Below, piece by piece: positions 1-59,686 of a stretch of DNA of 64,000 bases. The notes beneath the pieces were generated by a model. That model was not told the DNA's origin and made no database searches. It saw only the letters and a program-made list of their open reading frames with translations. Location of the stretch: the NCBI GenBank assembly GCA_035221665.1, contig CM069139.1, forward strand, positions 37,572,001 through 37,636,000. Reading direction: 5' to 3'. Made by a program: the position numbers and the translations under genes. This DNA comes from Okamejei kenojei. Taxonomy: Eukaryota. Position 1 is the first letter of the stretch. Each line of letters begins with the position of its first letter.

Positions 1-561
1 GATTGATTAGCAGATGGGTGGAGTAAGTGGCAAAGGCTGGAAACAATAGGGGGTCAGGAAAGGAGCGAAGAGGCAGAGTGAGATGTAATGCCGAATAGAA
101 GAATATGGGTGGAAGGGGGCAGGGGAAAGAGGGGAGTTAAAAGGATATATGGGTCTTGGGGATAGTAAAAAGTATACAGTATTATTTACTTATAATATAA
201 TATTATGCTGCACTATCACACTTGGCACCACTGCAAACACACATTATACTGCCATCTATTTGCCCATGACAACTACATGATCCGGCATATTGCACAAGTT
301 CACTTACATACTTGATTCTTGCAGAATAAGAAATTCTCTTCGTTCATTTGGGGGAGTAAGCCAGTATTTATCATCCATACTTATTTTTTCCATGAACTAA
401 GTAGTTTACTGTGCTGTTTTAGAGGTTATTTAAGAGTACACACGTAGATCGCTCAAATAGACCAGAGTAAAGAAGATCAATAAACTTCCTTCCATGATGG
501 ACAATGGTTTACCAAGCAGATGGTGGACAGTTGGAAGCTGCAACTAACTGGGCAGTAGGTA

Positions 562-1250
562 TTAAAGAAGGAACTGCAGATGCTGGAAAATCGAGGGTAC
601 ACAAAAGGCTGGAGAAACTCAGAGGGTGCAGCAGCATCTAAGGAGCGAAGGAGATAGGCAACGTTTCGGGCCGAAACCCTTCTTCAGACTGATGGGAGGT
701 GGGGGCGGGGGCGGGGAGAAGAAAGGAAAAAGGAGGAGGAGCCCGAGGGCTGAGGGAGAAGTGGGAACGGGAGGAGACAGCAAGGGTTAACAGAATTGAG
801 AAAATTCAATGTTCAAGCCCAGAGGATGCAGACTCCCCAAGCGGAATATGAGGTGCTGTTCCTCCAACTTGCGGTGTTGCTCACTCTGGCCGTGGAGGAG
901 GCCCAGGACTGAGAGGTTGGATGTGGAATGGGAGGGGGAGTTGAAGTGCTGAGCCACCGGGAGGTCGGCTTAGTTATTGCGGACCGAGCGGAGGTGTTCG
1001 GCAAAACGATCGCCAAGCCTCCGCTTGGTCTCACCGATATAGATCAGCTGGCATCTAGAGCAGCGGATGCAGTAGATGAGGTTGGAGGAGGTGCAGGTGA
1101 ACCTCTGTTGGACCTGGAAGGACTGCTTGGGTCCCTGAAAGGAGTGGAGGGGGGAGGTAAAGGTACAAGTGTAGCATCTCTTGCGGTTGCAAGGGAAAGT
1201 GCCCGGGGAAGGGGTGGAGCGGGAGGGAAGGGAAGAATTGAGCAGAAGGG
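562..1250 (-). mobile_element. Penelope-like retroelement 3' portion: GIY-YIG endonuclease remnant plus terminal repeat with hammerhead motif
   Basis: ORF 970-1266 has C-x4-C-x2-C followed by NLIY...YIGETKR...RFAEH. Reading through one in-frame TAA (970-972) continues ADLPVAQHFNS...KLEEQHLIFRLGSLHPLGLNIEFSQFC to the stop at 787-789. Confidence 0.85.
657..690 (-). ncRNA. Minimal hammerhead ribozyme motif (PLE-associated)
   Basis: Minus strand reads AGT CTGAAGA A GGGT TTCG GCCC GAAAC GTT GCC: core CUGANGA, 4-bp stem II with UUCG loop, GAAA, palindromic ACGU, NUH site. Confidence 0.65.
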
Positions 1251-7819: not shown

Positions 7820-8550
7820 CCAGATGCTGGAATCAGAAACAAAACAGAAATGCTAATATTGAAGACCAAAAGAACAGAGACATGGTTCTCAGGAAAGGCA
7901 ATTGACTGCCACGAGCATTCCATTAACTCTCCTCCCATCTTGGAAATGCCCTAAACTTCAATGATTATGAAGGGGGAGGGGGATGGGAGGGGAGTAAGTG
8001 GAAGTTACTTAAAATTAGAGAATTTAAATTTTCAAACCGTTAGGTTGAAAGCTGCCCAAGTGAAATCTGAGGTGCTGCTCCTCCAATTTTTGCTTGTGCC
8101 CTCACTCAGGGAATTGAGGAGGCTAAGGACGGAAAGGTCAATATTGGAATGAGAATTTCAAGTTTTAAGTAACTTCTACTAATTAGAAGTAACTTCTACT
8201 TACACTCCCCTCTCCCCCACCCTTGCCACCTTCCTCCACCCTAGCTGTTTTACTAGTTCCAGAGTTCTGCATGGTGTTTCTCTCTTGAGATCACACTTTC
8301 CCTAGTCAACAATGAGCCAACCAGGGCACCGCCCTGCGTAAGGGCATTTGGGGCCAGCTCTGATTGGTCCTGGGCTCTTCTCTCCACCAGCTCTTTATCC
8401 CATCTCCCCCCACTTTCATTCTGAAGAGCGGTCTCAACCCAAATCATCACCCATCCTTTTGCTCCAGAGATGCTGCCTGACTCGCTGAGTTACTCCTGCA
8501 CTTTGTGTATTATCTTTGGTATAAACCAGCACCTGCAGTTCCTTGTTTCT
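7820..8550. mobile_element. Degenerate Penelope-like element in inverted configuration
   Basis: 8000-8150 encodes a KLEEQHL.F.LGS remnant on the minus strand, homologous to 790-880. 8190-8550 is a plus-strand terminal repeat with a decayed CTGAAGA core at about 8421. Confidence 0.65.
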
Positions 8551-11308: not shown

Positions 11309-11403
11309 AGGTAGACACAAAATGCTGGAGTAACTCAACGGGACAGGCAGCATCTCTGGAGAGAAGGAATGGTGACGTTTCGGGTCGAGACCCTTCTTCA
11401 GAT
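11309..11403 (-). mobile_element. Solo PLE-terminus mini-element with intact hammerhead core (11371-11403)
   Basis: Minus strand CTGAAGA A GGGT CTCG ACCC GAAAC GTC ACC; homologous to 590-690. Confidence 0.75.
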
Positions 11404-14400
11404 TGAATATGGCATCTATTTTGTTATTCGTTGTCATAATAGCTATTAACACTTTACTCAAAGTATGTACTCCATAGAAACATACAGAGCATAAATCAGA
11501 AATAATACAGACTAAGACAGATATTACCGATTTGTTTACTGCTTATGTATTATTCTTAATCTTGATATGTAATTTATGTAAGTGCCCTGTTTCTGCTGCA
11601 CATACACTTTGACATGTAATTTTCAGTTTTATAACATACATAACAGAATTAATATTTATTTTAATTTCTGATATGACTAGAAGCTCAATATATCCTTTGC
11701 TATCTCTAAATCATTTCTAGGTTGTATGCATTAAAGTACTTTCAAAATTGGTGATTTGTAATTTATACTAAGAATTCTAAAGCATTTGTGGATTTTAAGT
11801 TAACTTTATTCTGAATATTTTGTAACAAAATGTGGCCTTAAAAGAATGGTTTGAGTTGCTGCTAAAGAATCGATCCTGTTCACAAATTGCTTCTTTGTTT
11901 CATGTCAATATGTTTCTCTGATACTGGGGTATGATTGTTTTAAAAATTACGATAAAGTAACAATTCAACATAGTATTAATCACAACAGAATAACATAAAT
12001 TTACAGAATTCTATGCAACACTTCTCAATGCAGAATGGAACGCATGGCATTTTTTTCAAATTTATCTCCAGGTCTGGTAAACATTCGCCTACATCTTGTA
12101 ATCTTGCAATTTATGTATTTTTACTCTGGAAACAAATTCCTAACTATTCTGCTGTAATCTACTTTGATTTGTATGGGTTAAAACAATACTGCTAAAATGG
12201 GGGGGGGGGGGGGGGGGATGCACAACAGAGAAAATTAATATGTAATCATCTGCATATTTATAATATAATGTTTTTAATTTTTTCCTTCCAGAGTAGCCCA
12301 ATATTTCATCCAGTCGCCCAGGTTTATCATTCGAGGTATATAAATGAACCCAAAAGTCCTGTGTAACTTGGAAATCGGTTTCTAAATCAGTAAATATAAA
12401 ACTCCTATATTGCTCATTATGTTGTGGTATTTTAAAATGCACTTGACTATTATTTGGACATGGTTCAAACGCATAGTCAAGAATATGAACACATTACATA
12501 TTGCAGGCGTGTCCATCTCGACGTGTACTTTTGTTTTAAAGAGTACAGGCAATAAGTGTAAAGGTTAGGAAACATGTTCTACCGCAAATGTTGCTTATGG
12601 AATTAAGGCAAAACGCAACAAGGCAGGTTACCCTGGGTTTGGGGGAGAGCCTATGCTCTAATCCTATAGTTCCACCTAATTAATTTCTCTTTTATGGAGC
12701 TGCATTTCATGATTGTATCTTGTTTGAAGGAGATTAGGAGTCGCACACTTCATTAACAAGGTGTAAATGATCAGAGCCCCTCTCCATCCACCTGCCTAAT
12801 TGGGTTAATGAAGTGTCTCTGCGGAATATGCTGCAGAAACAAACCGCCCAATCCTCACAGATTTACCGCTCTGCAACATCCAATCCTTCAATTGCACAAA
12901 GACCACACTAACTCGCAGCGAAGATCGCAGGTTTGCTTTTACAATTTCGATGTCTGTAAAATAATCTTGGCTCTCATCAAATTATACCAAACTGCGGAAT
13001 GAATTCATTGCACCGAATCACTCAACTCCACTCTAGTTTTTTTTTTAATTATCTAAACATTATCAATCTAATTAATATGGTCTGTGCTTAACCTATGTCA
13101 TTTCTTTCATATCTGTTAGCTGTAGAACTGGGCAACTATTTTCCCTCTGCCAACTATATCGCAGTAAAAAGCGCAAAGCATGGTGTACTGAAATACCGGA
13201 ACGCTTCTAATTCAAACTATAACGCGCAGAATTCGTGATTCAATTCCGCTCTCGACCGATAGCATAATTAGAAAAGTATCGATTTTCGCCTGACTAAATA
13301 TACTTTGACCATTATATATTTTCCAAAGAAAATGTGTTAAACACTATATATTATTCCAAAGAAATATCTTCCAAACGCTTGGGTACTGTCCAATTCGCCT
13401 CCACCCCGCGACGGATATTGGGCTTTGCGTTTGGTACTGATGCGCTAAAATGCAGAGAACTATTTTTTGCGCTCGGAATCTTTCCCTTCGCTCTGCTTGT
13501 TGTACTTAAGTTTGGCTTGATGGCACATGTACAATGTTACCTAATTTGAATGGATAACACACAAAGTAAAACTTTTCACTGTATATCGGTAGACGTGACA
13601 ATAATAAACCTAAACTTAACCTAAATCAACGTTGTCTTACAGCAGGCATTCTGAATGGTCAGTGTTTGCTATTCTATGAAGGGAAATCTGAATCCCACTT
13701 TAATAGCTGGAGCTTAAACAATGTTCCGATGAGAACAAAACTTACTTATCAACGTTAGGGTTTATTCGTGAACCTGGGGCCACACTGGCACGAACAATAC
13801 TTAAATCCAATAAACACACCTATAGCATGTGCTCCAGAGGTGCTACCAGACCAGCTGAGTAAATCCAGCACATTGTGTTCTGCATCTGCAATACGTAAAT
13901 CTAGCCTCGATTAGGAACACCAGATTTAAAATTGCGATAAGATGATAATCAAAAGATAGGGTTTAAAACAGTTTAAAGCTCTCGGAGAATGTTTTATCAT
14001 ACGGCACTAGAAGCCTGTAATCCGCATCAAAGTAGGTTACAGCAGTTTACATTCCCGGTTGCATTTCAAGTAAAAGCTGATATAGTGAGAGCGTGGATAT
14101 TGTGTTAGTTTGGGAATGTGTTCATTTTTTCCAAGATTTGATGATCCAAGATGGTTGTTGTTCCATACATTCAGTAAATGCCAGCTTGGATAAGGATAAA
14201 ACCTCAACTGCTGCGAGAGAAAGCTGTTGTTTCCTAACACTCTTGTTGGAAATGTTGACTCTAGATGCATTGTAACTCGGGACACCACACGCCTTTTCGG
14301 TGGTGTTAAAGGCGTTCGATTGCACTTAGTTTGACAATTAGTTCGGGGAAGTGCACGGTTAATGGCGCATTTGCAGCAGGACCAACTAACTGGAAATGAC

Positions 14401-16111
14401 ATGATATTCACACGTTCAGCAGTGTGTTACAGTCAACAGATGCTGTCGGTGTCCACACTTTCGCCCAGAATATTCCCATGATGCATGTAGGAGGAGCATT
14501 CTCACCTCCGTGTGATGTTTAACTTGTACGTGTAGCTATATATGTATGGCTGCCACATCCGGTGTTCATTTGAAATCGAAATATATATTTATTGGAAAAA
14601 ACAAAATTCGATTGAATGTACTCTGATTAAGAGTGTCGCAGTCACTAGTCAGATTGTAATCACACACGTTGCATCTTGTTCATGTGCCTACCAATCCTAA
14701 TTCGAAAGGTAAAAAATTAAAGTTAACGACTCTGTATCAGGTATGACAATGGGGACATGAAACATAACAAAATAACAATCAAACGCTTAAAACAAGCCAA
14801 TCCCATTTAAATCACAGACTCGATTGAAGTGTGTTATTTTCAGATCTTGAAAACGAAACATTTTTGTCTTAATCATGTTAAGATTATAATATACATTGTG
14901 AAATAACATGATTCTCAATGTAGTCGTTCATTTTGAAAAATGTATTACCTAAGCAAGCCCACTCCGTCTCATCTATATATAACATACATATTTATAGCTA
15001 CCATTCCTAATTAAATGATTTGGACAGCGAATACTTAAATATTGAATTCAGATTGCGGTAAATCAAAATGCCATCGGGTGATTCCTAGACAATACATCTG
15101 GCTGGACTCCATCCCCTCCTCTGCGGTGAAGATCTCACGTGCAGTCGGAAATTGCGGGCAGACTGATCTAAAACCTGTCCTATTCCGGATCTATACCGGG
15201 TGAGACTGCAAGTTGTATCATTTCTGTGGAGTTTCTGGTGGCAGTTGTTCGATCGGTCTCGAATATGTTTCGCAACAATAAATTACAAAATAGTGTGAAA
15301 TTGTGAACAGCCGCCAAAGAACGGCCTCCGCCCCACCAGAACGAATATTTATTTAGTTAAAATTAACGCATTTCTTCCGCTAAATGTGGACGGCAGGATA
15401 CCTTTTTAAGTAACGATTTAATTCAGAGTGAATGAGTCTGACTAATCCGGTGTGATTTTATAATTGAAGATGGCCAATATCCTAATGTCTAATATTCTCA
15501 ATCCGACACAACTTTGAAAACTATCAAATGCAACTGTTCGTGTTGTTAACTTGTTCGTGGTCAGCAGGCGCGGTTGAAAATGAAACCTTAAACTCTTCTT
15601 TGTAAAGTTAGAAATATTTTGTTGAGTAAACAAATTAGAAATATTGTTGGACTAAAATGTGTAAGTGGTTTATGTCAGATAAATTTCGGTGATCAGAACA
15701 GGTTTACAATATTCACGTGGCTCCTCGGGCGTGTCGGAGACGTAGATTCGTTTCAGCGGTACCACCAGTCGCCAGAGAGTTCGAGTTTCATAACTTGATG
15801 GGGTTTGTGAATAGGGGCGGGATGGTAGGATCGGGACAGGGACTGGAAGGTGTAGAGACTCGATGCTTTGTGGTGTGCAGCGCATTCAGCTACAACCTAT
15901 CGACCATTGCAGCCTTCTTGTTCGTTGTGCTAAGGGGAAGGGAAGGGACGGGATGGGATTCCTAGTGAGTCATGCAAAGAAATGTTAAAATATTAGTTTC
16001 CCAATCAGTCAATAGTACTTCATTGCCAGATGTACTGACAAGGAAACGATTACATTCTTACTTGCAGCAGCATATTAGGCCTGTAAACACAATACACATA
16101 GATTAAAACAT

Positions 16112-16209
16112 AGGGTTACACAAAAAGCTGGAGAAACTCAGCGGGTGCAGCAGCATCTAAGCAGCGAAGGAGATGGGCGACGTTTCGGGTCGAGACCCTT
16201 CTTCAGACT
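16112..16209 (-). mobile_element. Solo PLE-terminus mini-element with intact hammerhead core (16176-16209)
   Basis: Closely similar to 595-690; core CTGAAGAAGGGTCTCGACCCGAAACGTC on the minus strand. Confidence 0.75.
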
Positions 16210-16229
16210 TCAGTGTGTCAGAGGAACTG

Positions 16230-22282: not shown

Positions 22283-22906
22283 TCACAAAACTTGGAACTT
22301 CCACGAGGACGTTTGATCTTTGTAATCCAAGCAGTCGGCGTTGAAGTTGAGTTTCCATGAAGCTGTCTGGTCTTTATAATCCAAGCAATCGGTGGAATTA
22401 AAACCTAATCCGCCGGCCGGGTAGCCTTGGGCGGAGAGGGAGGCCGGAGACTGGTTAAGGTGGCCAGCGGTGACTGCGTTTGTGCCCATGGGACTGAGCC
22501 CCGTGCCTGGGGCGGGGAGTTGGTGATGCATCGGGGACAGGTAAGAGCCGCAGTCCATTCCCCCGAAGTAGGACGTGGATCCGGCATATCCCTGCGTGTA
22601 ACCCGAGGCTTGGCTGTAGGTCATGGGGTAGGAACGCTGCATGCAAGACGAGGACGTGGAGAGGCAGTCGGGAGCGATGGGTGATATGGAAGCGGGGCTC
22701 CAGATTGACACCGGGGCTGTGCTGCTCGAGATGGCCGTCGCCGAGGTGCTGGAGGGCGGCGTGAATTGGCCGCCGGCCACGCTTTCAGAACCCAGCTCCC
22801 GGGCAGGAGAACTCTTCTTCTTCGCGGGTCTAACTTTATGCTGCCCTCCGTTCTGCTGTTGTTGCTGCTGCTGGCGACACTTTGCTCGGCGGTTTTTGAA
22901 CCACAC
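22283..22906 (-). CDS. otx2: otx2 coding exon 3 ([11 protein letters not shown], polyQ, SIWSPA, duplicated Otx tail, stop TGA)
   Basis: Polypyrimidine tract and GAAG|GTG acceptor at 22908-22907. K50 recognition helix WFKNRR. C-terminus [35 protein letters not shown] is typical of Otx2. Spliced product is 290 aa. Confidence 0.97.
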
Positions 22907-23258
22907 CTTCAAAAACAAAAACAAAAAAAAGTTCAACCGTAACACAAAAAAAGTATTTACTGAATCAATGCAATTAATTAATGTGAGATAAAATGACTGC
23001 AAATACAAATATCTTTGTTTGTCCCTTCGCTGAGTTCCCGGCGTTAAGATAACTAGTTCCCATTCTAATCGATAAACAATATTTCTTATCAATATTAATG
23101 ACCATATTCTTCAGGACGAAAATCGAATATGAGTTTTTGGATTTTTTGCATCAGTTCCTATTTTGTACGTGAAGGAGGGGCATGATCCTGCATCATTTTA
23201 CTTTGAATAATTACATGTACAGGATGAAATCTTGTTACACGCACCATAACATTATCTC

Positions 23259-23372
23259 GGAAAAGACACAAAATGCTGGAGTAACTCAGCGGGTCAGACT
23301 GCCTGACAAGCCGTGTTAGTCTAACACTTTGTTTTATTTGGTAAACCGGCAACTGCAGTTCCTTGTGTCTAT
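23259..23372. mobile_element. Decayed inverted pair of PLE termini in otx2 intron 2
   Basis: ACACAAAATGCTGGAGTAACTCAGCGGGTCAG followed by the oppositely oriented CTGCCTGAC...AAACCGGCAACTGCAGTTCCTTG. Confidence 0.6.
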
Positions 23373-23540
23373 ACACCTATCTCACCGAGTTTACGACCGT
23401 TCGTTAATAATCCCTTTTAGAAAATCGCAGACCTATCACGAGTTCCCCGCACAGCGACTGACCCCCTGGTTCAATCCGAACCCATTTTAAAGAATTCCCT
23501 CCTCAGTGAAGCCGAATTGGCGCCGGGCGTGCTCCCGTTA

Positions 23541-23801
<261 letters not shown>

Positions 23802-24015
23802 TCACTCTCCAGGCAAAAAGGATTTAGGCGTCATTCCTTTCTCACAACCAACGCCACTCTCGCTTTAATGTTTGCCGCAGAGAGAAATAATTCGGCTAGT
23901 TAGAATTTTAATCAAGAGAGAGAAATGTCGCCCAAATGTTTTACGCTCATGGCAAAACACATTTTTCAAAGGGAATGGGACATGAGAATGTGTCTGCTGC
24001 CCTTCAATAAATTTA

Positions 24016-24375
<360 letters not shown>

Positions 24376-33292: not shown

Positions 33293-33461
33293 NNNNNNNN
33301 NNNNNNNNNNNNNNNNNNNNNNNNNNNNNNNNNNNNNNNNNNNNNNNNNNNNNNNNNNNNNNNNNNNNNNNNNNNNNNNNNNNNNNNNNNNNNNNNNNNN
33401 NNNNNNNNNNNNNNNNNNNNNNNNNNNNNNNNNNNNNNNNNNNNNNNNNNNNNNNNNNNNN
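33293..33461. other. Assembly gap (169 N)
   Basis: Run of N. Confidence 1.
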
Positions 33462-36127
33462 GTGCAAAAATAGCAATCTAAGGCAGAACCAAGTGTGAGT
33501 GAGTGAGTGAGTGTGTGCGTGTAAGAAACAGAGGACTACTTCACACTCGTGCCTGCCCCTGCCTTATCACCTTCCATTCTCCGGCTTTGCCAGTTTCCCA
33601 TTTTCTAGGATTCTCGCCTGCACTGTTGTTATTCTTGTTTCCTTTGAAACAAGTTAACTCCTTCGAGGCAAGTGGCGCTTTTCAAAAGACCCGGCACTCG
33701 ATTTTTAGACAACTGGCATAACTTTCTCCTTAATGAATTGGCCATTCTCGGTGAAAGTTGATTTGTAAATTGGGCTATCAGTAACTCGTTTTGTTGCATT
33801 TAACATTCATTATTAATAACACATTGGTGGAATCAATGCAAATAAAAATACAACAGGGGCCAGTGTACTGTTCTTTTTAAACAAAGAGATCCCTGGAAAA
33901 CTGAAACTAAGAAAATGCATATATAACAGATCAGACAGCATCTGTTGAGATATTTCAGATAGGGCATATGCATATCTCTCTCCACAGATGCCGACTGACC
34001 TGCCAGAGCTTTTACTTTAAAAAATATATATATACTGAAATGCCAGCACCTTTTATTTTCATTAATGTGTAACAATTGGATAATAGTTTTGCGAGCGACA
34101 CTGTTTATTCATTAAGTTCCACACTAGAGATCAGACAATAGTTTAAAATATCAGATTATCTGTTACTTTAAATAAACAATATTTTGCTAATCTAGCGATT
34201 TTCTCGTCTTGGGGCGCCTCCTGCGAAAATAATTTACTTTCTTTGCAACACCACAAAGGGGCCAGCTGTCGATTATACACCGGTTTTTATTCTGGGGGTG
34301 TTATTGTGTATGATCGTGACATATGCGAATATTTAGCTTTGTATCTCACAGACTCATAGACTGATTAGGTTGGAATTTTACTACTAAAATTAGGAAATGA
34401 ATATAACTCACTTTTGACATGTCTTCATTATGGAAATTGACTGTTGAGCTGAAGAGATATTTTAATTGAAAATCCGCCATATTTCAATAGTAATGCAGCT
34501 GAAGAAGATTATATACTTTATCCAAACATTCGAACAATTACTGTTGGGATCGAGGATAACAACCAAATACCAGAAGGCATTAGTTCCAATATTACAGGTT
34601 ATATTAATTGCTGGGCGAATCTGATTTTATTAAATAAATTATTGAACAATATTTACAGGGCAGTATTACAATTTGAGTGAGACACTTAGTATATAAAACT
34701 TTTGAGTCAAGCCCGTGTGATTTTGTTTAAACTGATGAACTGAATAGAACGAGTGTGATGAATTCATCAGGGGATATTAAGCTTGAATTCTTTATATATA
34801 TATATAAGTTATGTTCTGATATGTAAAATGTATTTGCTTTAAATTCTGAATGGCAGCTTATTTACACCAGATCTTCAAAATAAACGTTTTCTCGCCGCTT
34901 TGAACACGGAATGCAAGTTATGGTGTAAATCGGAGAGGTTTTGTTACGTTTTGGGAAATTAAGAGGCGCAGAGTGAACAGCAGCAAGAACTTCATACATC
35001 AAGACAGATTACATTTAAATCTAACTCTGTTATTATGGATGTTTGCGAAATGTCAATTTTGAAATTTAGACAGAAGTGAGGACAACAGCATTCGCAAGTC
35101 GTCTAGCACAGACCCCTGTCAAACCCCGATGTCTAATATTCAGTTTCTCTTTATATGGATGTTGACCATTACTGCGAACATTCATTATCCCAATTCTGCC
35201 TTTATTTATCCTCGACCTTCTTTGCTGTCCATTTTGTGGCAAAAGAGCGGAGCTCCAGCCAAATTTCTTTTGTACTACCCATCGCATGAAAATAGTAAGC
35301 AACTTCTGTAAAGCCAACGTGACGTGTTCACCTTTTTATTTAAAATAAAACAACACAGGTTCTGACAATGTCGGTCGGTGAATAACAACATTAGAGGAGT
35401 CGCTCGAGTGGTTTGTGGCTGGGAATTTGTCGCCCTATCTGCCAACAGGAATAACTTGGAATATCAAAAGCACTTAAAGAAAAACAAACCCAGAGAACCA
35501 CAATAGACGCGAAATCCCTTCCATTACATTGGCATGTATTAAAAGAGCCTGAGAAAAATTACTATGCAGCTGAAACAAAGTTTATAAACAATTGTAGTGG
35601 ACCTGGGCGATGATTAACATACAAGTCTACTTTACCAATACACCTTTAATAGCAGTGCAGCGATGTCGGATTTTATTTGGTTTAGACTAAGTGTTTCCTC
35701 ATTTCCTCGGCAGTGGGTTACAACTAAACCCCAAGTAACAACTCCAGTTTAGGCAGTTACAAATCCGAGGAAAAAAAGATGTTGATACGTTAATCACATT
35801 TCCAAAATTTAAGAATTATAGTCTGGTATTACTCTGTAGATCTGAGCAAAATACAACTAAATTCACAAATGCAATCGAGATTTAATTCAACTCAATTAAG
35901 ACGAAGTTCGATTTATTTTTCGACAGTGACATGATGTAAACAATATGTTCGAAATTGTGATAAATAAATGCTCGCTACAGCGTTTATTTTTTGTTTAAAA
36001 AATAAAACAGCCCTAAACGTAACTTTAATTTACCAATGCTATTATCGAGAATCCCCTATCAATGACACGACTTGTAAACTTGCGCCGGGAAAAATATTTA
36101 TTGTGAGCTAACAAGTGCAGCACACAA

Positions 36128-36224
36128 AGGTAGGCACAAAATGCTGGAGTAAGTCAGCGGGGCAGGCAGCATCTCTGGAGAGAAAGAACGGGTGACGTTT
36201 CGGGCCGAGACCCTTCTTCAGACT
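36128..36224 (-). mobile_element. Solo PLE-terminus mini-element with intact hammerhead core (36191-36224)
   Basis: Minus strand AGT CTGAAGA A GGGT CTCG GCCC GAAAC GTC ACC. Confidence 0.75.
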
Positions 36225-38699
36225 ACAAATACAAATGCAGCATACAGTTGCAGGAAATCAAATAAAAGTGACTGCTTTTCATAAATACCCTCCTGAACAA
36301 CAACTTGCGTGTTTACCTCAAAGACGAACTGCAATGCAAAATTAGTGGTTTATTCTTGATGTCTTTCACGGAGAGGTCTACAAAGTAAAGTTTAAACTTT
36401 GCGTAATATTTAATTACAGAACCTTATTGGCGTCATCACAATTTGCAAATAGTAATCGTATTTTCCTCCGGAATTATGTTTTAAAATCCCTTTCCTTGTG
36501 CATAATGTACAGAACGAAACACCCCTCTTGTTCTAAAATAACGTTTAAAAAGACCTTCTCAGGTAATAAGCAACTGCCTGAAAAATACTAACATTGTGTC
36601 CACGAAGCAAATGGGAGGAAGCAACCCCCCCTCCCCCCTCCCACCCACCCCCCACCACACTGCCTCTCCTATCCCACCCATCTTCTCATCTTCCCTATGC
36701 ATAATTCCAGGCATGTAAACAAACTTGCGAAATGTCCATCAGGCCATTTTATCCTGGAAACAAGATTTAGGACTTAAAATTTAAACAAGGCCATTAAAGC
36801 ATCGCAGACATCCGAGTGCTGCGACTTTCGATGATTTGATACAGAGACAAGAGGAGTACGCGGCATTGAAGCGACCCACCTCCTGAAAGTTTCTCAGAAG
36901 CATTTAAAAGTAATACTCCCCCTTAAACTTAATACCTTTATTTTTACAGGCGGCGCAAATATTTCAGGTACCCTCTGAAAATACTGGACACATATTTACA
37001 GAATACCAAGTGAGAAATATTTCCAACCACAAAGCAGAGGGCATCACCTGTACATATTTTAAAACAAGCGTGTGTAGACTAGTTATCAGCAGTAAGGAAA
37101 GAGTATTAAAAATCCCATAGGTCTTCAATATCTTAACGAATAATTTGACCCAACAATTATTGCAGTTTATATGCTACTATATGTGCAAAGTAACTGTGGG
37201 GAAACAAAAAAAAACGACTATACGGCTGGCAATGTCCACATTACCAACGTTTACTTTAATCAATCGAACTGACTGTGACTTTTGCTGTCCAATATAACCA
37301 TTGGTTGCTCGCTGTGAAATAAAAAGTATGTTTCCTTTGCACAGTTCAATATTGGTCAGGTCACACCCGTGGAATTTGGCGGAGTGAACGCAACAAAATC
37401 CTCGCAAAACAAGTGCAGGGAAAGTGGAGACATGAGTTTCAGCGTAACATCTCCAGACCTGGACGTTAATTCAGAAGTAGGCAGTTATTGTGAGTGACGT
37501 CCTCTAATAACATATTGTACATGTTGCATGTCAATTGATGTCGGGCACTTGCTACATCAATATTCTGAAAGGTGAATTTTACATAGTGTCGCAGAACTTT
37601 AAAAAACATAAGGAGGAGCAGGAGGCGGCCATCCTGACCTTTGCGTCTGCTCTATCTTTACAGCATTTCGCTCTCTCCCTCCCCCTTGTTTCCATCCTCT
37701 CATATCCGGGCCAAGTGAATGTGAAGACATTGGATGTTCGAGGGCTGGAGAGAGGAGGTGACCTCTGACCCTTTGCCCACTGTATTTACCCGGTTGATCC
37801 ACTCACTCTCTGGGCAATGATGTTCCCCAAATATTAATGGTGGGTAAATGCACCAACGTTTTTGGAGATTGTCAATGTGTTTCACCCATGTGGTATGAGT
37901 TCTATGTGTCTTTGGTCATTGTCATATAGCATGGAAACAGGCATTTTTCCAACTCATCCATGCCTACTAAGATGCCCTATCTCGGTCTTTTAGCTGCAGA
38001 GTGCTGTATTACCTAATGGGTAGCTGACTGGAATTGAAAGTCGTCCCATTGATTACTCAACATTTATACCTCGTGACTGAAGATGGGTTTGCCTGGGACA
38101 CGATGGTGAGACACTCGTAGTGATGTATTGAGGTCGATATGATTTGGACTGGCTTATTAATCCATAATTCATACATATAAACTGTTAATCTTGTGATTGG
38201 AGGAACAATATATTTGTACGTTTCAGCCCCCCTTGTGTTTAACTCTCACACGTCCCTCTCACACTGCCCTCTCAAACCATGCAATTCGGCTTGAGGGCCT
38301 TAAACTTTAAGGTTTAACACTGCTGTTTGGCATATTATTCATTGGCCACGAGTAAAATATGCTTTCCTAAAACTTTGTCCCATTTTCACCTTGTAGAAAT
38401 AATTTGTGGCTCAGACCTCTGCATTATATTATCTCAGATTGCCATGAAGACCCTCTGACTCGAAATTCAAGGTAAAGTCCATTAATGCTGCACATTTCCC
38501 ACAGGTAACATCAAATATATTTCCTTCCAGTTGCTTTTACAAATGTACTGCTAATTAGGTAGAATTGAAATACTTAGGATTCTTTACAACATCACTGAAC
38601 TGAATCCTTCTGCCTAAGGACATTGTGCCTTAAAAGACTTCTAACGATTTTGCAACTGGTATCCTTGAATAAGACTGATACTACACAACACTTGCCAGT

Positions 38700-38840
38700 T
38701 TCTGCCCAGCTCCTACCTCTTCTTCAACTTTCTCCCTCATATTGCATTCCATCTGATGAAGGGTCCTGACCCAAAACGTCACTTATCAATGTTCTCCAGG
38801 GATGCTGCCTGACCCGCTGAGTTACTCCAGCACTTGTATT
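38700..38840 (+). mobile_element. PLE-terminus copy with a decayed hammerhead core
   Basis: CTGATGA A GGGTC CT GACCC AAAAC GTC ACT at about 38753-38783 (GAAA has become AAAA), followed by GATGCTGCCTGACCCGCTGAGTTACTCCAGCA. Confidence 0.7.
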
Positions 38841-39294
38841 TTGCTACAAAGAAACAATCGTGATTTGAGCACGAATCGTGATTTATTTTTAGGATGCCGG
38901 AAGAGAGTTTGGATATTTTTGGCCATATATTTAATTGTACAAATAGAATGTTCATGATATTTCATGTTTAATTGTGATAGTACAGTATTCATAATGTTGC
39001 AACCCCACACAAGCATCCCATTTTTATTTGTCAGACATTACTTTCACAATTTTAATAATGCTTCAATTAGAGATAATTATAAGTATAGAAACAAGGATCT
39101 GCTGATGCTGGTTGACAAAAAAGACACAAAGTGCTGGAGTAACTCTGCAGGTCATGCTCAATTCTAAGTATGTTCTTGATAAATAGTTATTATATCTATA
39201 TTTGATGAGTCATATTTCATCAGTGGGACCTGTCTACAGTTTGCAGACAAGATTTTTTATTCATGACTATTTCCAATTATCTTTTTCCAATGTG

Positions 39295-39840
39295 TAGGAA
39301 GGAATGGTTTAAACCGAAGATAGACGCAAAAAGCTGGAGTAAGTCAGTGGGACAGGTAGCATCTCTGGAGAGAGGGAATGGGTGATTTTTTGGGTTGAGA
39401 CCCTTCTTCAGTCTGAAGAACGGCCTCGACCCATGTGAGGAATGTGGAATCCACAGTGATGGATGTTTATGTTAACTTTTATGTGGTTGTGCGTCTTGTT
39501 AGATAGAGTTTCTAAAGATAGTGGTCAAGGTTTATGGGGAGAAGGCAGGAACAGGGTACTGATTGTGGATGATCAGCCATGATCACATTGAATGGCGGTG
39601 CAGGTTCAAAGGGCTGAATGGCCTACTCCTGCATCTATTGTCTATTCTCTATTGTCTATTGTTGCTTTTCACTTAGTATGGCTGTATGGTAACTCAAATT
39701 TCACTGTACCTTAATTGGTACACATGACAATAAACTGACCTTGACCTTACAATCTTGACTCGAAACGACACACATTCCTACTCTCCAGAGATGCTGCCTG
39801 TCATGCTGAGTTTCCCCAGCTTTTTGTGTCTATCGTTTTC
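39295..39840. mobile_element. Inverted pair of PLE termini interrupted by nested LINE tails (CR1 3' end at about 39520-39660)
   Basis: Junction CTTCTTCAG-T-CTGAAGAA at about 39403-39420; the second arm resumes at about 39758; (CTATTGT)n CR1-type tail inside. Confidence 0.65.
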
Positions 39841-41779
39841 CAATGATGTCTTTGGTCGGATAATGTGAATGTGCCTCAACTAACAATTTCAATTAGTTGT
39901 TGAACTATCCATATACAGCATGAGAAAATCTTGCCATCTATTCATCAAAGGCAGAATATACACTTGCATTTTGTTTTTCAATAAAACATTTGCATCTTGT
40001 ATACTTGAGCCTCAAAATTAACTTCTTATAGCTTGCATTCAACTAGTTCCCAGTCACTATGCTTATCGTTGATCTTGCCAATTAAATGTAGAGGGAATCA
40101 ATATCTTTATCTGTTTCCTCCAAAAGAATTCCAGGAATTATTTTTTTTTTAAATTAATGCAACAGAACAAAATGCACATTTGCAAGCAGTACATCGATTA
40201 TAATTTGGAGCTTAATCCATTTTGACTTTGCAAAATATGGTAAACAAGTATTGCAACAAAATTAAAAGTTTAAAGATAAGGGAAATGTGATTTTCCTTTA
40301 TCAATGTGAAAGTGTAAAGTATTTGCACAAAAATAAAGTCTGCAATAATATTTTGCATCAATATTGTCTATGCTATGCAGTAATAATATTTTCTGAAGCA
40401 TCTCAGACATTGAAAATGTCTCAAACAACAGGTTATTGTATTTCAATATAAATTTTACAATTGTAAATTATCGTTATGAGACCATCTTACGTTGGTGGCC
40501 AATGGACAAAAGCATCTGAATGTGGCAATATAAAATGTTTTTATGAAATTACATCAGTGTTGCAAGTTCTAGGATGAAATTACTGCATTAATAATCTAAC
40601 ACTTGAATTAACTGAACCAATAAATTATTTTAATCATACATGAAAAGATAGTTCAATTATTCAGAATATAATAAACAATTTTCAATGTAAATGGCAAATA
40701 CTCTATTGTTTCCATAGGCTTAACAGGAAAAAAATAACTCAATTGAATCATACAAAACTATTTACTCATTTGCTTCTTATGTTCCTGCATACTCCTGCAA
40801 TCACACTTCACTCTGGTACTTTTGATGTTTGCACATTTTTGCTAAATTATGTTCACCATGTACATGTAATATCAAACACTTCTTGATTTTATTTGACAAA
40901 ATGGAATTTCAAATCTTTTATACGTTGTTCAGGTTTACAACCCCTTTTCTATTTGTCCAGTTAGCCCACCTGAAGAACTACTATCCTAAAATATTTGATA
41001 TTATGAAAGTGTCATTATTTTATTTTATTTACATTATTTATTGCAGGTAATATGTTCACTTCATTTTCAAGTAAATTAAATCTCTTAGGAATTATATGAA
41101 AACTACTTGATTGAACACTATATTAAGGAACAATTATATCCTACCTCTCCCCTTTCTATATGATTATATTTTATTATATATCAGATGGATATGGACACTG
41201 GCTTTTTTATGGAATTCATTTTAACAACTTGCTCATTTTATGTTGCAATATTTAACTTCATGATGACAGCGATATTTAAGTATTTTTCAAAGGGAACAGG
41301 GTTTGGTTTCTAATTTAAAAAAGAACTAATTAAAATGTCTCTTGGAAATGTATGTAGATAAGTTCATTGTTCTCTCCTGAAATACTATTTCGATGTGCAA
41401 TCCCAGGTTATTATTATATATTGTTCTTGACTGTACTTTGCTGTTATTTTGTGTAGAAGCTGACGTATTAATATTTACTATTGCCGAATAGTGCAACTAC
41501 CCCTTCAATGTATTTTAAAAGTCTACAAATTGCTCCTGTGTTACTGATTGAAACAAGTTTCTCTGATGTTAAAAGTAGTCATATATTGTGCCTTAACCAT
41601 TGTCAATCATAAATTGTTCCCATGCCAATTATTTTTTTAGCTTTGTTCAGGTTATCTCTACATTGTTCACTATTCCAGACATTGGTTTAAATCCATGCAT
41701 TCACACAGATTTAATAATAAATACAATACATCTTTTTAAAAGTGTGATTTGTAGGTGAACAATTATAACATTTTCAGTT

Positions 41780-43980: not shown

Positions 43981-45029
43981 CATAGTTACAGACTGATGTT
44001 AGAGTATTCCTAGTTACATTTGATATAGCAGCATCTGGATAGGTGCAGTGCTGTACAATGCCACACTTCAATCATACACTACTTATAGTCATAGATTATT
44101 GTTATAATATTTATGTACAGGTTTGTCCTACACAGCACATGCTCACAGACTGATACTCCATTCTCATGAATGTTTCTAGAGAACCTATTTTCACAGTTTT
44201 ATCCCACAAATTACATCGTCACATATTGCAACCAGACTGCACAAAGTCACAAATTGAGCAGATTGATCCAATGCTGTATGTAGTTAACAAAAGATCCTAT
44301 GCCATGTACAAACCCAGTCAACAAGGAATCCTAAGGTGTTTACTTTCTAAAGTTGACTTGGGGATATCCATACTGGTCGATTAATCTTACATTGAACAGA
44401 GTCATGGATTAATTTGGCATTGTGTGCAGTCTAAAATGAGTATTATAATGTACTTTGTAACAATTGATCAAATGCAGATATAATTCACACCACACATAGT
44501 CACAGAGTGATTATATGCCTTAATTGTCATAGACTGATCATATGGTGTTTACATTTCCCTACTGTGACAGTATCTGCAGCATTCTTAGTCAAAGATTGAT
44601 CCACAATGCATGTTGTTGCAATTGATCCACTGCTGTTCATAGCGATGTTAAATGTGCATCGAGTAAGAAATTATCTTAAATTGACAAATTATTGAGTCTT
44701 CTGGGCCACACATTGTTGTGACACTGTTTAAACCTGCATGTTTGCAGGGCTCACAAAAAGCTGGAGAAATTCAGCGGGTGCAGCAGCATCTAAGGAGTGA
44801 AGGAGATAGGCAACGTTTTGGACCAAAACATCAGACTGATTGCTTGTAGGGTTGCATGGTTGATCTAACTACATAGTCACAGACTGACTTTACATAGAAT
44901 AGAGCCTCAGTTCGATCTTATGCTAATTCTTGTCAAAGATGAGCCTTGTGTTTTATATACATTGTCTCAGATACATGTAAAGACATTCAGGACTAAGATG
45001 AAGAGAACATAACCAATGGAAGCCACAGG

Positions 45030-46093: not shown

Positions 46094-46565
46094 TTGGCTC
46101 CATACCGTGGTCACACATTGCTCATTATCACAATGACCCTCCAATATATCTAGCCGGACATTAACACTATACCACATGTGGCCACGGGCTGATATCACGT
46201 TTGTAGTCACAGATTGTGTGCAAACAGAGTGACAGACTGATCATATGGTATTCACAGTGATAGACTGATCCTATAGAATTCACGGTGATAGGCTGATCCT
46301 ACAATATTCATGGTGACCGATTGATCGTACAGTATTCATAGTAACAGATTGATCAGACGGTATTCCTGGTGACAGACTGATGATATGGTATTCATCATAA
46401 CAGATTGATTGTACAGTATTCACTGTGACAGACTGATCATACAGTATTCACTGTGACAGACTGTTCATACAGTATTCACTGTGATAGGCTGATAGTACGC
46501 CATTCACAGTGACAGATTGATGGTACAATAAACACGGTGACAGACTGATCATATGGTATTCATGG

Positions 46566-46770
46566 AAGGTAGACAAAAAATGCCGGAGAAACTCAGCATG
46601 TGAGGCAGCATCTATGGAGATAAGGAATTGGCGACGTTTCGGGTCGAGACCCTTCTTCAGACTGAACGCCGCCAATTCCTTCTCTCCATGGATGCTGCCT
46701 CACCCGCTGAGTTTCTCCAGCATTTTTTATCTATCTTCGATTTTTACAGCATCTGCAGTTCTTTCTTAAA
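46566..46770. mobile_element. Inverted PLE-terminus pair with hammerhead core and 16-bp target-site duplication
   Basis: Arms 46566-46633 and 46670-46737 are reverse complements. CATATGGTATTCATGG occurs at 46550-46565 and 46771-46786. Core at 46630-46663 on the minus strand. Confidence 0.85.
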
Positions 46771-46916
46771 CATATGGTATTCATGGTGACAGGTTGACCG
46801 CACAGTATTCACGGTGACAGGTTGACCGGATGGTATTCTGGGTGACAGATTGATCGCACAGTATATACTGTGACAGACTGATGGCACAGTATTCACAATG
46901 ACAGATTGATCCACAA

Positions 46917-47910
46917 TAACCATCAGCACTGGGGCACCTAAAATATGTAAGCTCTGTCCCCTGCCCTACTCACTCTATACCCATGACTGTAGCCAGACAC
47001 AGTCCCAACTCCACCTTTAAATTCGCCAACAACATCTCCGCTATTGGACAAATTAAAGATAATGATGAGTCAGAGTACAGGAGTGAGATTGATTGGCTGA
47101 CTGAATGGTGCCTGAACAACAACCTTGACCTCAACATCAGTAATACTAAGGAATTAATTGCTGAATTTAGAAGAGGAAGACTGAGGATCCACAAATCTGT
47201 CTTCATTTATGGGCTGATGGTGGAGAGAGTCAAAAACGTCAAGTTCTTGGTTGTGGATATCTCTGAAGACCCTGTCCTGGACCCAGCACATTGATGCAAT
47301 CAGAAAGGAAGGTCATCAACACCTCTACTTCCTTAGAAGATTCAGGAGATTTGGTATGTTGATGAATACTATCTTGAACATCTACAGGTGTGCAGTAGAG
47401 GGCATAATGACTGGTTGTATCACGACTTGGTTTGGCAACTCAAACGCCCAGGAACAAAGGAGATTACAAAAAAATGGTGAATACTGGCTGTCCATCAAGG
47501 GTTCTGACCTCCCCCACTATTGAAACAATCTATAAGAGGCACTGTCTCAAAAAGGTAGCCAATATCATCAAGAACCCACCACCATGCTCTCATTTCACTC
47601 TTGCCTTTGGGAAGAACAAGTAACATCCAGGTTCAGGAACAGCTTCTTCCTAACAACCATCAGGCTATTGAACACAGCGAACTCAAATTCAACTCTGAAC
47701 CACGAACTGCCTGGGTTGCACTGGGGACCTTCAGTTTTGTTTTTGTTTTTAAACTCTATTGGGTTTTTCATTTATTGAACTTGTTTTTTTGTTTGTTTAT
47801 TACATTATCTATTGAATACGGAGTTTACAACCAATTGTACTGCTGCTGCAAGAATTTCATTGTTCCATTTCGAGGCGTATGACAATGAAACATTCTTGAC
47901 TCTTGACTGT
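46917..47910 (+). mobile_element. Rex/Babar-type LINE, 5'-truncated, RT remnant
   Basis: Frameshifted TISTGAP..., FKFA(NN for DD), DESEYRSEI..LTEWC.NNNL.LNIS.TKELI, LYFLRR and SRFRNSFF motifs; CTTGACT tail. Confidence 0.85.
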
Positions 47911-49620: not shown

Positions 49621-49799
49621 ACAGCCCTTCTTAATAATTCTTCATACAGTTCAATGTCACAGATTCAACCAACACTCTGCTTAGTTGCATGTCAGTGTTA
49701 CAGCAGTAATAATCTCAGTGGTCCTACAGACTTCAAAGCCACAGACTGACCAAAGAGTACCTATATGAGAAATGTTACCTAAACTACGTGGAGTTGCAG

Positions 49800-52700
49800 G
49801 AGAATCGTACAGTATTAATACTCAGATTAGTCCTACCACATTAATAGTCATAGATGAATCCTATAGTATTAATAGTTACAAATTAATCATGCAGTATTAA
49901 TGGTCACAGATGAATCCTGCAGTATTAATTGATGTAGTTGAATCCTAGAATATTAATAGTCCAAGATGAACCCTGCCAATGTTATTAACACACAGATGAA
50001 TCCAATATTAATATTACATACAAAATTAATAGTCTAGGATGGATCTTACAGTATTAATAGTCACTGAAGAATCCTACAGTATTAATAGACACATATGAAT
50101 CTTGTAGTATTATTAGTCACATGAATCTTACAGTATTAATAGACACAGATGAATCCTACCTTATTAGTATTCACAGAAGAATCCTACCATATTAATACAT
50201 ACAGATTATCCCTACCATATTAATAGTCACAGATGAATTTAATAGTATTAATAGTCACATATGATCTATGCAGTATTAATTGTCACAGATTAATCCACCA
50301 GTACTAATAGTTGCAGATAAATCATGTGGTATTAATATTGGCAGATGAATACTATAGTATTAGTAGTCACAGATCAATTTAAGATTATTAATAGTTACAT
50401 GCATCCTACAATATTAATAATCTTAGATGAATCCTGCAGTATTAATACATATAGTTGATTGCTATAATATTGATAGTCACAGATTAATCCTGCAGCATTA
50501 TTAACACTCACATATGAATCCTACAATATTAACAGTCTCAGATTAATCCTACAGAATTAACCGTGCAGATGGATCCTGTATTCTTAATAGTCACAGATGA
50601 ATTCTGTAGTATTAATGGTCACAGGTTAATCCTGCAGTATTAATAGTTACAGATGAATTTAAGAGTATTAATTGTCACAGATGAAACCTACAGTGTTCAT
50701 AGTCATAGATGAATCCTACAGTATTAGTTGTTACTGAGTATTAATGATCACATTTGAATCCTACAACATTATTAAATCACAGATTAATCATAGTATCAAA
50801 AGTGACAGATTAATCCTAGAGTGTTAATAGTCACAGATGAATTCTACAGCATTTTTAGTCAGAGAGTATTAATAGTCTGATGAATTCAAGAATATTAATA
50901 GTCACTGAATCCTATAGTATTAATAATTACAGCTGAACCCTAGAGTATTGATAGACACATATGAATCGTGTAGTATTAATACATAGATGAATCCTAGAGT
51001 AGTAATCAATACAAATGAATCTTACAGTATTAAAGTTCACAGAAGAATCTGAGAAGCATAAGTAGACATATATGTATCCTAGAGCATTAGTAAACACATA
51101 AGCATCCTGCAGTATTAATAGTCACAAATGAATCATGCGATATTAATAATCACAGATGAATCCTATAGTATTAATAGTCATAGATGACTCATACAGTATT
51201 AATAGTAATGGATGAATCCTACAGTATTAATCCTGTATTAATCCTGTATTAATACAGACTGTTAAATCCCAGAGTATTAACAGTCACAGATGAATCCTGC
51301 GACATTATTAACACTCACAGGTGAGTTCTACAGTATTAATAGTCTTGGATACATCCTGCAGTATTAATAACCAAAGATGAATCCTGCAGTATTAATAACC
51401 ATAGATGAATCCCGCAGTATTAATAGATACAGTTGAATCCTACAATATTAATAGTTACTGATGAATCCTGTGGTATTAATAGTCATAGATGAATCTTGCA
51501 GTTGCAACTAGTTATAATGGGATTTTGCAACTAGTTATAAAGGGATCTTCTTTCCAGAGGCCATTAGGACTGTAAACTCCTATCGCACCAAGGACTAACT
51601 TTACTGTACCACAATACCGCCCACAATATTTAATATGTAAAAGAACATGTGATTCTGTTCCATTCTGTTTGTAGTTTGTTTGGTTGTTTGTTTGTTTGTT
51701 TGTTTTTTTGCACAAAGTCCGCGAGCACTGCCACTTTTCATTTCACTGCTCATCTCGTATGTGTATGTGACGAATAAACTTGACTTGACTTGATTTGACT
51801 TGGGAAGCAGCCTTTTAAACGTGCCCAGAAAGTTTGAGAAGGCTTGACAGGAAGTTCAGAGTTCCAGAGGGTAAGAGGAAAATTGAGCAGATTGGTGGGA
51901 TGAGGGGTTGTGTAGTTTGCATGCTGTGTGGGGGCTAGGCAAAGTTGAAACACAAAAAACTTAAACATTGAGCCAGTAGAGAGAGAATTGGACAAGGCTA
52001 AGGAGGGATTTCAATGTTTAGATGTAAACAAATTACTCTTTCGTGATGGAGGGATATGACCAGAAAGGGTGCTCGCCTCTCGCAATGCCATCTGTGGCCA
52101 CTTAGGGAATTTCAACTGAACCCTTGTAATTTTGTCCGGATAATATGGGTGGGCAGACCGTCAGTTGTCAGAAAATTGTTGTTCAACCTGTATTAGCCAC
52201 AAATTAATCCTATTATTAGTCATGGATGAATCCTGCAGTATTACGTCACAGATGAATCCAAGAGTATAGATAGTCACAGATGAATCCTACAGTAATAATA
52301 GTTGCAGATTAATCCTGTATTATTATTACACACCGAAGAATCCTAGAGTACTAATAGTCATGGATAAATTCTACAGTATTAACATTCACAGAACCATCCT
52401 GTAGTATTAATTGTCACAGATGAATCAGAGTATGAACAGTCACAGAAGAATCCTAAAGCATTAAAAGTTACAGATGAATCCTGCAGTATTAATAGTCACA
52501 GATTATTCCTTCGGTATTAATAGTTACAGACAATTCCCAAAGTATTAATAATCAAAAATGAATACTGCAATATTAATAATCACAGATGAATCTTAGTATT
52601 AATAGTCACAAACTATTCCTAGAGTATTAATAGTGACGGATGATTTCTGCAATATTAATACACAGACATGTCCTACAGTATTAACAGTTATAGGTGAATC

Positions 52701-53190
52701 CTTAGTATTAAGTCACAGATGAATCTTGCAGTATTAAGTCATATAAATTCTACCATATTAATTGTCACAGATGAATACCACAACATTCTTAAATACTACA
52801 CTAATAGTTAGAGATGAATCCTACAGTATTTATAGTCACAGATACACTATACTGTATCATTAGTCACAGATTAATAGTCATAGATGAATTTTGCATTATT
52901 AATAGATACAGTTGTATCCTAGTGTATTAATAGTCACAGCTGAATCCTGCAGCATTATTAACACTCACAAATGAATCCTAGAGTATTAATAAGCATGGAT
53001 GAATGTTCCAGTATTAATAGCCACAGATGAATCACGTAGTATTAATGGACATAGATGAATCCAAGTATTATAGTCATAGATGGATCCAAGTATTAATAGT
53101 CAGAGATGAATCTTACAATATTACTGGTCAAGTGAATCTGAGTAGTAATACAGAGATGAATCCTTCAGCATTGATAGTCCTGACTGATCC
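49800..53190. repeat. 28-bp minisatellite, type B units (GTATTAATAGTCACAGATGAATCCTACA), roughly 90-100 diverged units in two blocks
   Basis: GTATTAAT at 51361, 51389 and 51417 (period 28). Blocks at about 49800-51500 and 52200-53190, with degenerate continuation to about 53900. Confidence 0.92.
51535..51802 (+). mobile_element. Rex/Babar-like LINE 3' end inserted in the minisatellite
   Basis: SFFPEAIR-like remnant; AATAAA followed by a (CTTGA)n tail at about 51779-51802. Confidence 0.6.
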
Positions 53191-54019
53191 TGTAGCATTT
53201 CCAGATTGTTCCTAGAATACTTCAGGAGGCAGAATGATTTTAGTCTGTACACAGTCATTGATATTTCTTCCCCTGTACATTGTCACAGATAGATCCTACC
53301 TAGTACAAAGTTACAGCTAAATTCCATAGTAGAACAACATAAATCAATCCTACAGTATTCACTATCAAAGGTTGATTCTACACGATATGTAATTACAAAT
53401 TCTACACTATATGTAAACACAATTTTGATAACTGCTAATTGGTCCTAAACTATATATTGGTACCTCTTAATCCAACAATATTCACAGTCATGGATTAATC
53501 CTAAAGTACTCTGAACCTGAGCACTGTACTGTCATGGATTAATCCTGAAATAGACAGTCACAGATTGATTCTGAAGTATTCATTGTTGTAGACTGATCCT
53601 AAATTGTACAGTCAGACTGATTCCAGGCAATGTCACGTGCTGGTCCTCCAGTTTTCATGGACATGAACTGATCCAACCCTGTACAATGATGGTCGCTGAC
53701 TGATCTTTCACACTATACAGAAATAAATTAATATTACAGTATTTATTGTTGCACATTATTCTTATAATATATATGGTCACTGACTGATCCTTACAGAACT
53801 CATGGTAACAGATGAAATATGCAGCAGCAGCTTAATGCCACAGTGCACATTGTCATACACTGATTGTGAACATTCAGTCACAGATCGATGCTGCAAGATT
53901 CATTGATCTTCGAATGCGTAAAAACATATTCTCACAATATTCTTCTCACATCTTAATCCTGGAGTAGTCGTGGTCCTACTTTCATTGATAGACTGTTCAA
54001 CTTTCGAGATTGAAACAAC

Positions 54020-54340
54020 TCCAGATGCTGCTTTACAAAAAAAAAGAAAGCTGAGAAAAGAGGTGGGGGGGGGGGGGGGGCAAAGCCTGGCAAGTGATAG
54101 GTTGATACAGTTGAATGAAACCCTTGCATACTTGTATCCACCTATCATTTGCCAGACTTTGCCTCACCCCCCACCTTGTTTTCCTTTCTCCCCTCTACCC
54201 CCATTACAATGAATCTGAAGAAGGGTCACGAACCAAAACATCGACTATGCATGTCCTCCAGAGATGCTGCCTGACCCGCTCAGTTACTCCAGCAACAGAG
54301 TTCTATACAAAATTCCAGCATCTAAAGTTACTTGTGTATC
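54020..54340. mobile_element. Degenerate inverted PLE-terminus pair
   Basis: CAAAGCCTGGCAAGTGATAGGTTGATACA versus TGTATCCACCTATCATTTGCCAGACTTTG; decayed CTGAAGAAGGGTC core at about 54215. Confidence 0.65.
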
Positions 54341-59500: not shown

Positions 59501-59564
59501 TCCCAGCCTTTGTCCAGTTAGCCATGTAATTCTGCACTACCAGGACCGATCATAGAATTTATAT

Positions 59565-59686
59565 TTAAGAAGGAACTGCAGATGCTGGTAAAATCGAAGG
59601 TAGATAAAAATGCTGGAGAAACTCAGCGGGTGAGGCAGCATCTGTGGTGCGAAGGAATAGGTGACGTTTTAGGTCGAGACCCTTCT
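59565..59686 (-). mobile_element. PLE-terminus mini-element with a truncated hammerhead core
   Basis: Homologous to 562-683. Confidence 0.75.

Follow-up and report, generated by a model that had tools for sequence, protein, structure and literature searches.

Hammerhead-bearing repeats dispersed in Okamejei kenojei are terminal pieces of a Penelope-like element that tend to begin at the ribozyme's 5' edge

What are the short hammerhead-bearing repeats scattered over this part of the Okamejei kenojei genome, and why do so many of them stop within a few nucleotides of the ribozyme? The original prediction regarded them as dispersed mini-elements of about 100-130 bp forming a separate, non-autonomous, retrozyme-like family. 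Coordinates given below without a locus name refer to the window, i.e. the whole stretch of 64,000 nucleotides that was analysed. Within a unit the C of CTGAAGA is numbered +1 and the preceding bases 0, -1 and -2; the predicted cut falls after +28.

A pattern search of the window recovers all six intact minus-strand cores that had been claimed (663-687, 11377-11401, 16182-16206, 36197-36221, 46636-46660 and 63760-63784) and finds none in 100 dinucleotide shuffles of the window. Pattern and profile searches likewise confirm the decayed copies, located near 8415 (+), 38753 (+), 39411 (-), 54215 (+) and 59687 (-). A profile built from nine window copies gives 24 matches in the window at a threshold of E<=0.1, about 17 of which are separate clear copies. 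The family is indeed present in very high copy number, as the 2.76 Gb genome contains 60,464 exact 27-base cores, and a 32-base downstream block recurs in exact form 58,254 times. In a random genome sample of 80 evenly placed 10-kb tiles (800 kb) a structure descriptor yields 36 matches, compared to 0 in five shuffles, and the profile yields 336 unit fragments; extrapolated genome-wide, this corresponds to about 124,000 descriptor motifs and about 1.2 million unit fragments. A scan of the window with the Rfam models returns no hammerhead family at E<=1. Weak Rfam matches to miRNAs and snoRNAs in the window stay under the gathering scores, those to miRNAs being due to a long hairpin at 54053-54180, which arises because sequence upstream of a decayed unit is repeated there in inverted orientation.

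The motif contains all parts of a minimal hammerhead (min-HHR), namely the catalytic boxes CUGANGA and GAAA, helix II, the extra base after A9, a palindromic 15.2-16.2 and NUH. Helix III is, as predicted, the palindrome ACGU, which needs a partner, and the short helix I amounts to 2 bp (U0:A/G29 in 134/168 and G-1:C30 in 118/168 copies). The closing pair of stem II does vary among the 168 spanning copies (138 U-A, 16 U-G), but the change is one-sided and not compensatory. Other frequent core variants concern loop II and position 17. Among the majority sequences of four subfamilies 28 of 28 core positions are invariant, compared to 41 of 55 downstream (14 differ), with a p of 0.002 which is optimistic because the clusters were defined on the downstream part; other blocks are as invariant as the core. 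In individual copies G12 is replaced by A in 23% of cases, as CpG decay predicts, and the copies are therefore not maintained. In predicted folds of five units the hammerhead is never the lowest-energy structure, the core strand pairing with the tail or with downstream pyrimidines (z -0.2 to -2.3, which is weak). In tailed units (63655-63790 of the window and L285:1050-1185) predictions pair the end of the tail with the catalytic core's GAAGAAGG strand, so that the whole 130-nt unit is closed. As a monomer the ribozyme is predicted to be off, activity requiring either a dimer or the protein. Dimer cleavage is reportedly treated by Lunse et al. (2017). A min-HHR tested elsewhere is described as inactive in monomeric and weak in dimeric form (PMC4209133).

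The sequence context of the core flagged at 657-690 reveals the origin of the repeats. Rather than being a mini-element, this unit forms the 3' end of a 5'-truncated Penelope-like element (PLE) of 680 bp on the minus strand (562-1241), which consists of a linker with GIY-YIG endonuclease fragment, a 3' UTR and a hammerhead unit with tail, as evident from its translation and from 92-95% identity to loci L061 and L285. The translated Cys linker (CNRKRCYTC) and the GIY-YIG fragment, which a stop breaks further on, occupy 973-1241 on the minus strand (Pfam PF01541, E 8.8e-5, above the curated cut-off). On the same stub and strand they are followed by the pyrimidine-rich UTR, whose tract at 688-760 ends in ATCAGT. 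This ending, which we liken to an initiator motif, is also splice-acceptor-like, both putative functions being read from the sequence. Next comes the minimal type I hammerhead core found by the pattern search (660-687, minus), predicted from hammerhead numbering to be cut between 660 and 659 (GUU), and finally, at 562-659 (minus), a conserved stem-loop region with a 34-bp tail, the ends at +93 and +127 representing putative start sites of reverse transcription. The assignment to the PLE type of min-HHR holds; a GIY-YIG domain is encoded upstream of the flagged core.

A first look yields 81,627 candidates for the GIY-YIG fragment, of which the best 150 are 91-97% identical to it if the window's own is left aside. 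At L061 a single open frame of 701 residues encodes both a reverse transcriptase (RVT_1, E 4e-6) and a GIY-YIG domain (E 7e-4), each under the Pfam curated cut-off, with a C-X4-C-X2-C linker and the GIY-YIG at the C-terminus. The linker CNRKRCYTC agrees with the CX2-5CxxC criterion of the Neptune clade; linkers of this type are described as common to Neptune and Nematis (PMC8557442), and the assignment to Neptune is based on the linker. At 4 of 12 loci walked upstream of the N-terminal region, the hammerhead unit runs through its tail into the ORF; these tandem, leader-to-ORF loci (L285, L286, L288, L289) point to a pseudo-LTR arising from partial tandems. In the tandem copies the long ORF opens at +163, and no complete ORF within a single copy was seen among the loci examined. 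With protein-coding PLE copies the unit shares about 95% identity at their terminus. It serves the element as 3' end and as 5' leader alike and is therefore a pseudo-LTR. An optional tail (ends at +90..94 and +127), inverted 5' copies (40/255) and short target duplications (8-25 bp) are all present. The repeats are not a retrozyme; they represent a Neptune-type PLE's pseudo-LTR, which is also its 5' leader. At L285:1055-1220 an acceptor-like CAG in front of the core and, at the main start codon, a donor-like AAG/GTATG flank the leader, and an out-of-frame ATG at +51 opens 57 codons; control by splicing or at the level of translation is possible.

Solo insertions with target duplications are real. 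Tailless solo units with an intact core are found by pattern and profile at 11309-11405 and 16103-16210, and a further one, flanked by a 12-bp target duplication with one mismatch, is present at 36127-36226 (all minus). A solo unit with tail at 63655-63792 (minus) starts 8 nt before the core and has a 14-bp target duplication. The core predicted at 46630-46663 is intact, but it belongs to one arm of a head-to-head pair (46562-46770, minus) in which an intact tailless arm faces an inverted tailed one between 16-bp target duplications. This pair is inserted in a long tandem-repeat tract (46187-46923); another such tract covers 49631-53958. Older remnants comprise a PLE stub at 7968-8548, in which an inverted tailed unit (8415-8548, +) lies beside an endonuclease fragment (7968-8154, -), a copy at 38663-38847 (+) with a core broken at G12, an N7 variant and a pyrimidine-rich upstream region, and a decayed tailed copy at 54053-54338 (+) whose upstream region is folded back. 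The profile adds a decayed copy with a short inverted arm joined at the palindrome preceding the core (39313-39432, -), a copy with a core deletion (44744-44851, -) and two copies which start inside the core, one at 39753-39842 (+) and a tailed one at 59560-59687 (-). From about 19 to 43 kb the window has hardly any units other than those at 36.2 and 38.7-39.8 kb. Such scarcity is to be expected of a developmental locus, and an Otx homeobox gene (Pfam TF_Otx), which we take to be Otx2-like, has exons at 22283-24375 on the minus strand. Two minus-strand frames at 62834-63715 resemble a tyrosine-recombinase (DIRS-like) remnant (weak Pfam match, E 0.087), and 33293-33461 consists of 169 N.

To locate the unit boundaries we used 223 copies not selected for the core, which were drawn from the window and from 25 block-centred loci in addition to the random tiles by matching the downstream block. 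Among the copies at risk, meaning those which reach the core, 79/137 stop at -4..0 (0.115 per base), which is about 20 times the rate at the predicted cut site (+26..+35; 12/208, 0.006 per base). Elsewhere the rate per base is 0.004-0.013 (+45 to +6), 0.024 (+1..+5), 0.031 (-9..-5) and, beyond that, 0.001-0.018; in all, the 5' ends are distributed across some 10 nt. The 86 youngest copies behave alike, with 28/58 ending at -4..0 versus 3/83 at the cut site. Truncation points thus cluster at the core as anticipated in the original prediction, and no excess of ends is present at the predicted cleavage site among the 223 copies. As the boundary coincides with the ribozyme's 5' edge and thus precedes the cut by about 30 nt, it was not made by cleavage; the templates held the whole core together with the cut site and were therefore uncut. 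Since the first count was made without upstream references for the older D-type subfamilies, the peak could have been an artefact of missing references. Upon a rerun with 125 upstream references and tolerant scoring, in which 5' ends are no longer base-precise, the excess stayed: 118/170 core-bearing copies still end near the core (control 3/60), 71 of the 170 being solo, 47 ending at an inverted junction, 47 continuing upstream and 5 remaining ambiguous, while 52/222 copies are without a full core. Genome-wide, 12,882/25,144 exact subfamily-A cores retain the next 9 upstream bases, point mutation being part of the loss.

These counts bear directly on the proposal of non-LTR retrozymes, according to which monomers would be excised by the ribozyme, circularised and reinserted. 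Animal retrozymes do derive from PLE pseudo-LTRs and are reported from one chondrichthyan genome tested (10.64898/2026.07.22.740005). Yet, the ends avoid the cut site, merely 7/255 cores are in tandem, mostly by partial duplication, the hammerhead is minimal instead of canonical, the units continue into the ORF of the PLE, and the tandem arrays that do occur repeat a ribozyme-free part. The retrozyme reading is largely refuted, and we consider it most improbable; a separate non-autonomous family of retrozyme type is not supported. In the arrays just mentioned, the part lying downstream of the ribozyme is repeated as near-identical 54-bp units (up to 19); they follow diverged cores at L083, L095, L096, L103, L106 and in other tiles, mostly on contig 1 at 1.4-4.0 Mb. 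While 75 runs are present in 80 selected tiles, none is found in the 80 random tiles. They could stem from a short direct repeat allowing slippage, from re-priming of a telomerase-like kind, from local gene conversion near a chromosome end or from an assembly effect.

Target duplications of 8-25 bp within 12 nt of the core are adjacent to 17/56 near-intact solos collected from all loci of the analysis, in contrast to 0-2 if the flanks are swapped. The 3' ends of these 17 solos lie at +90..94 (11), +99 (1) and +127 (5). Of the 39/56 solos without an adjacent duplication three have one further upstream (28-43 nt). Neither a shared 5' exon nor a captured host exon precedes the core in any solo. 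Overall the unit has two fixed 3' ends at about +93 and +127, i.e. copying starts 34 nt apart, which match the known PLE tail. In 42 head-to-head pairs one tailed arm is found 32 times, two tailed arms once and none nine times, where 20, 7 and 15 would be expected (p 1.7e-4).

Could the solos constitute a SINE-like family in which some members undergo transcription of their own and are copied again in trans by the PLE protein? They contain both priming sites and the putative start, mobilisation in trans by pseudo-LTRs has been described (PMC3846280), and subfamily D is devoid of long copies, with none reaching -150; its source element is unseen for this reason. The solos, however, possess neither a common 5' extension nor private sequence, and they agree with the ends of the long copies in subfamilies A/B, C and E; this makes a non-autonomous family of this kind improbable, albeit less so than retrozymes.

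We favour the explanation that the repeats are pieces of the Neptune-type pseudo-LTR, and that the solos of 95 and 130 bp are probably run-off cDNAs made by the element's own enzyme from uncut RNA likely starting just before the hammerhead. Most units begin ahead of the motif and not at the cut site, likely because the RNA of the element starts there. Transcription would start at the AGT/GT preceding the core, where TCAGT or CCAGT at the 5'-end peak resembles, as we assume, an initiator. The combined reverse transcriptase-endonuclease would then prime internally at +93 or +127 and run off the capped 5' end of the RNA. Priming of both target strands, at one site each, may give rise to the head-to-head pairs. 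RNA starting in the pseudo-LTR would yield cDNA of 95 or 130 nt only, longer copies presumably needing read-through RNA; cutting, if it occurs, would strip the first 30 nt from the RNA, and inserted copies would decay as passengers. An internal promoter in the pseudo-LTR is described for Penelope (PMC2377424). As to a downstream promoter element like that of Penelope, AAACGTC is similar to the one given in the same source, yet its spacing does not fit cleanly and we do not claim it. AGT is preceded by G in 992 copies, by A in 787 and by T in 455; with 44%, G is 1.3-1.6-fold more frequent than expected from three backgrounds (28-35%). Letters separate the duplication from the core at 14 junctions; 8 of these begin with G, and in 4 of the 8 the G is templated. 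An untemplated G is regarded as a mark of capped templates in L1 and SVA (PMC4859970). The G excess is compatible with a cap being copied in a minority of cases, although other junction chemistry could explain it. Among public RNA data, where all 24 runs are assembled contigs and most are only presumed to be RNA, four compared with the element yield neither starts nor ends nor usable splice joints, contigs being unable to reveal starts.

The peak site is at the same time a textbook splice acceptor and a palindrome, each of which is a rival cause of the peak. In the main rival explanation, which concerns the same element, the boundary would reflect a strong stop which the reverse transcriptase meets on long read-through RNA. 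The pyrimidine tract could impose it, as could splicing factors bound to the CAG acceptor or a fold-back at the TCAG-N-CTGA palindrome. Indeed, a pyrimidine tract and CAG directly precede the core in every long subfamily seen, some pairs have their inverted junctions at the palindrome, the intron of D. virilis Penelope ends at helix I (PMC4209133), and self-priming has been proposed for PLE palindromes (PMC3846280). A stop signal, however, does not predict the G excess, half of the young cores read through, and the peak is present in all five subfamily groups in spite of upstream sequences which differ between them. We therefore judge a stop to be the less likely cause, though a considerably more serious contender than a SINE-like family. 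Returning to a transcription start as the preferred cause, an extended version of it is somewhat more doubtful than not: the mini-elements might be strong-stop-like products, with capped transcripts beginning exactly at helix I, a dimeric enzyme priming two internal sites, one per target strand, and hundreds of thousands of run-off cDNAs resulting, while the hammerhead, instead of excising monomers, might be a switch by which the mRNA decaps itself within its first 30 nt.

Both the element type and minimal ribozymes in PLE ends are already known; the signatures of start site and twin priming are a testable refinement. What PLE hammerheads do, and how the later steps of PLE insertion proceed, are named as open questions (PMC8557442, PMC11167929). 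The present family offers a very large natural sample for counting 5' ends, 3' ends and tail pairing. Its end counts argue against cut RNA as template and point to one candidate transcription-start site, and they illustrate that some 10^5 hammerhead motifs can accumulate without the ribozyme driving the spread.

A literature search found no account of this family or of its end peak, repeat libraries and paper supplements, which may contain either, being outside its scope. The family compares with known systems as follows. EN+ PLEs of the Neptune/Nematis type (Craig et al. 2021, PMC8557442) share the reverse transcriptase, the Cys linker C-X4-C-X2-C and the C-terminal GIY-YIG, as well as 5' truncation, partial tandems, inverted 5' copies and a 30-40-bp tail at one end; a sharp 5'-end peak at the ribozyme edge is not found described in the accessible text. 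In the anole PAc Poseidon element (Frangieh et al. 2024, PMC11167929) two internal start sites of reverse transcription likewise bound the tail, both target strands are nicked and extended, the RNA template is uncut, and a hammerhead, protein-dependent there, is located at the start of the coding region; in vitro, the product of the anole PLE protein shortens if the template is shortened at its 5' end. The clade, however, differs, the family described here is known from sequence alone, and its long ORF opens at +163 with an out-of-frame ATG at +51. Non-LTR retrozymes (PMC7229834; 10.64898/2026.07.22.740005) are also short, non-coding, hammerhead-bearing and related to PLEs, but they are tandem repeats in which every unit has its own hammerhead and from which processing at the cut site produces circles, whereas the units studied here are dispersed and not bounded by cuts. 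The closest resemblance of the ribozyme itself is to the min-HHRs of metazoan PLE pseudo-LTRs (Cervera and De la Pena 2014, PMC4209133), with which it has in common the extra base after A9, the G10.1-C11.1 pair, a palindromic 15.2-16.2 without loop III, a 2-bp helix I as in D. virilis and the occurrence mostly as single dispersed motifs, ascribed there to truncated PLEs, while helix II comprises only 4 bp here. In number, the motifs of O. kenojei (60,464 exact, about 124,000 by descriptor) exceed the 4,000 of coelacanth and the 9,000 of Xenopus (PMC4209133), and the descriptor-based figure comes near the 126,247 canonical motifs of axolotl (PMC7229834).
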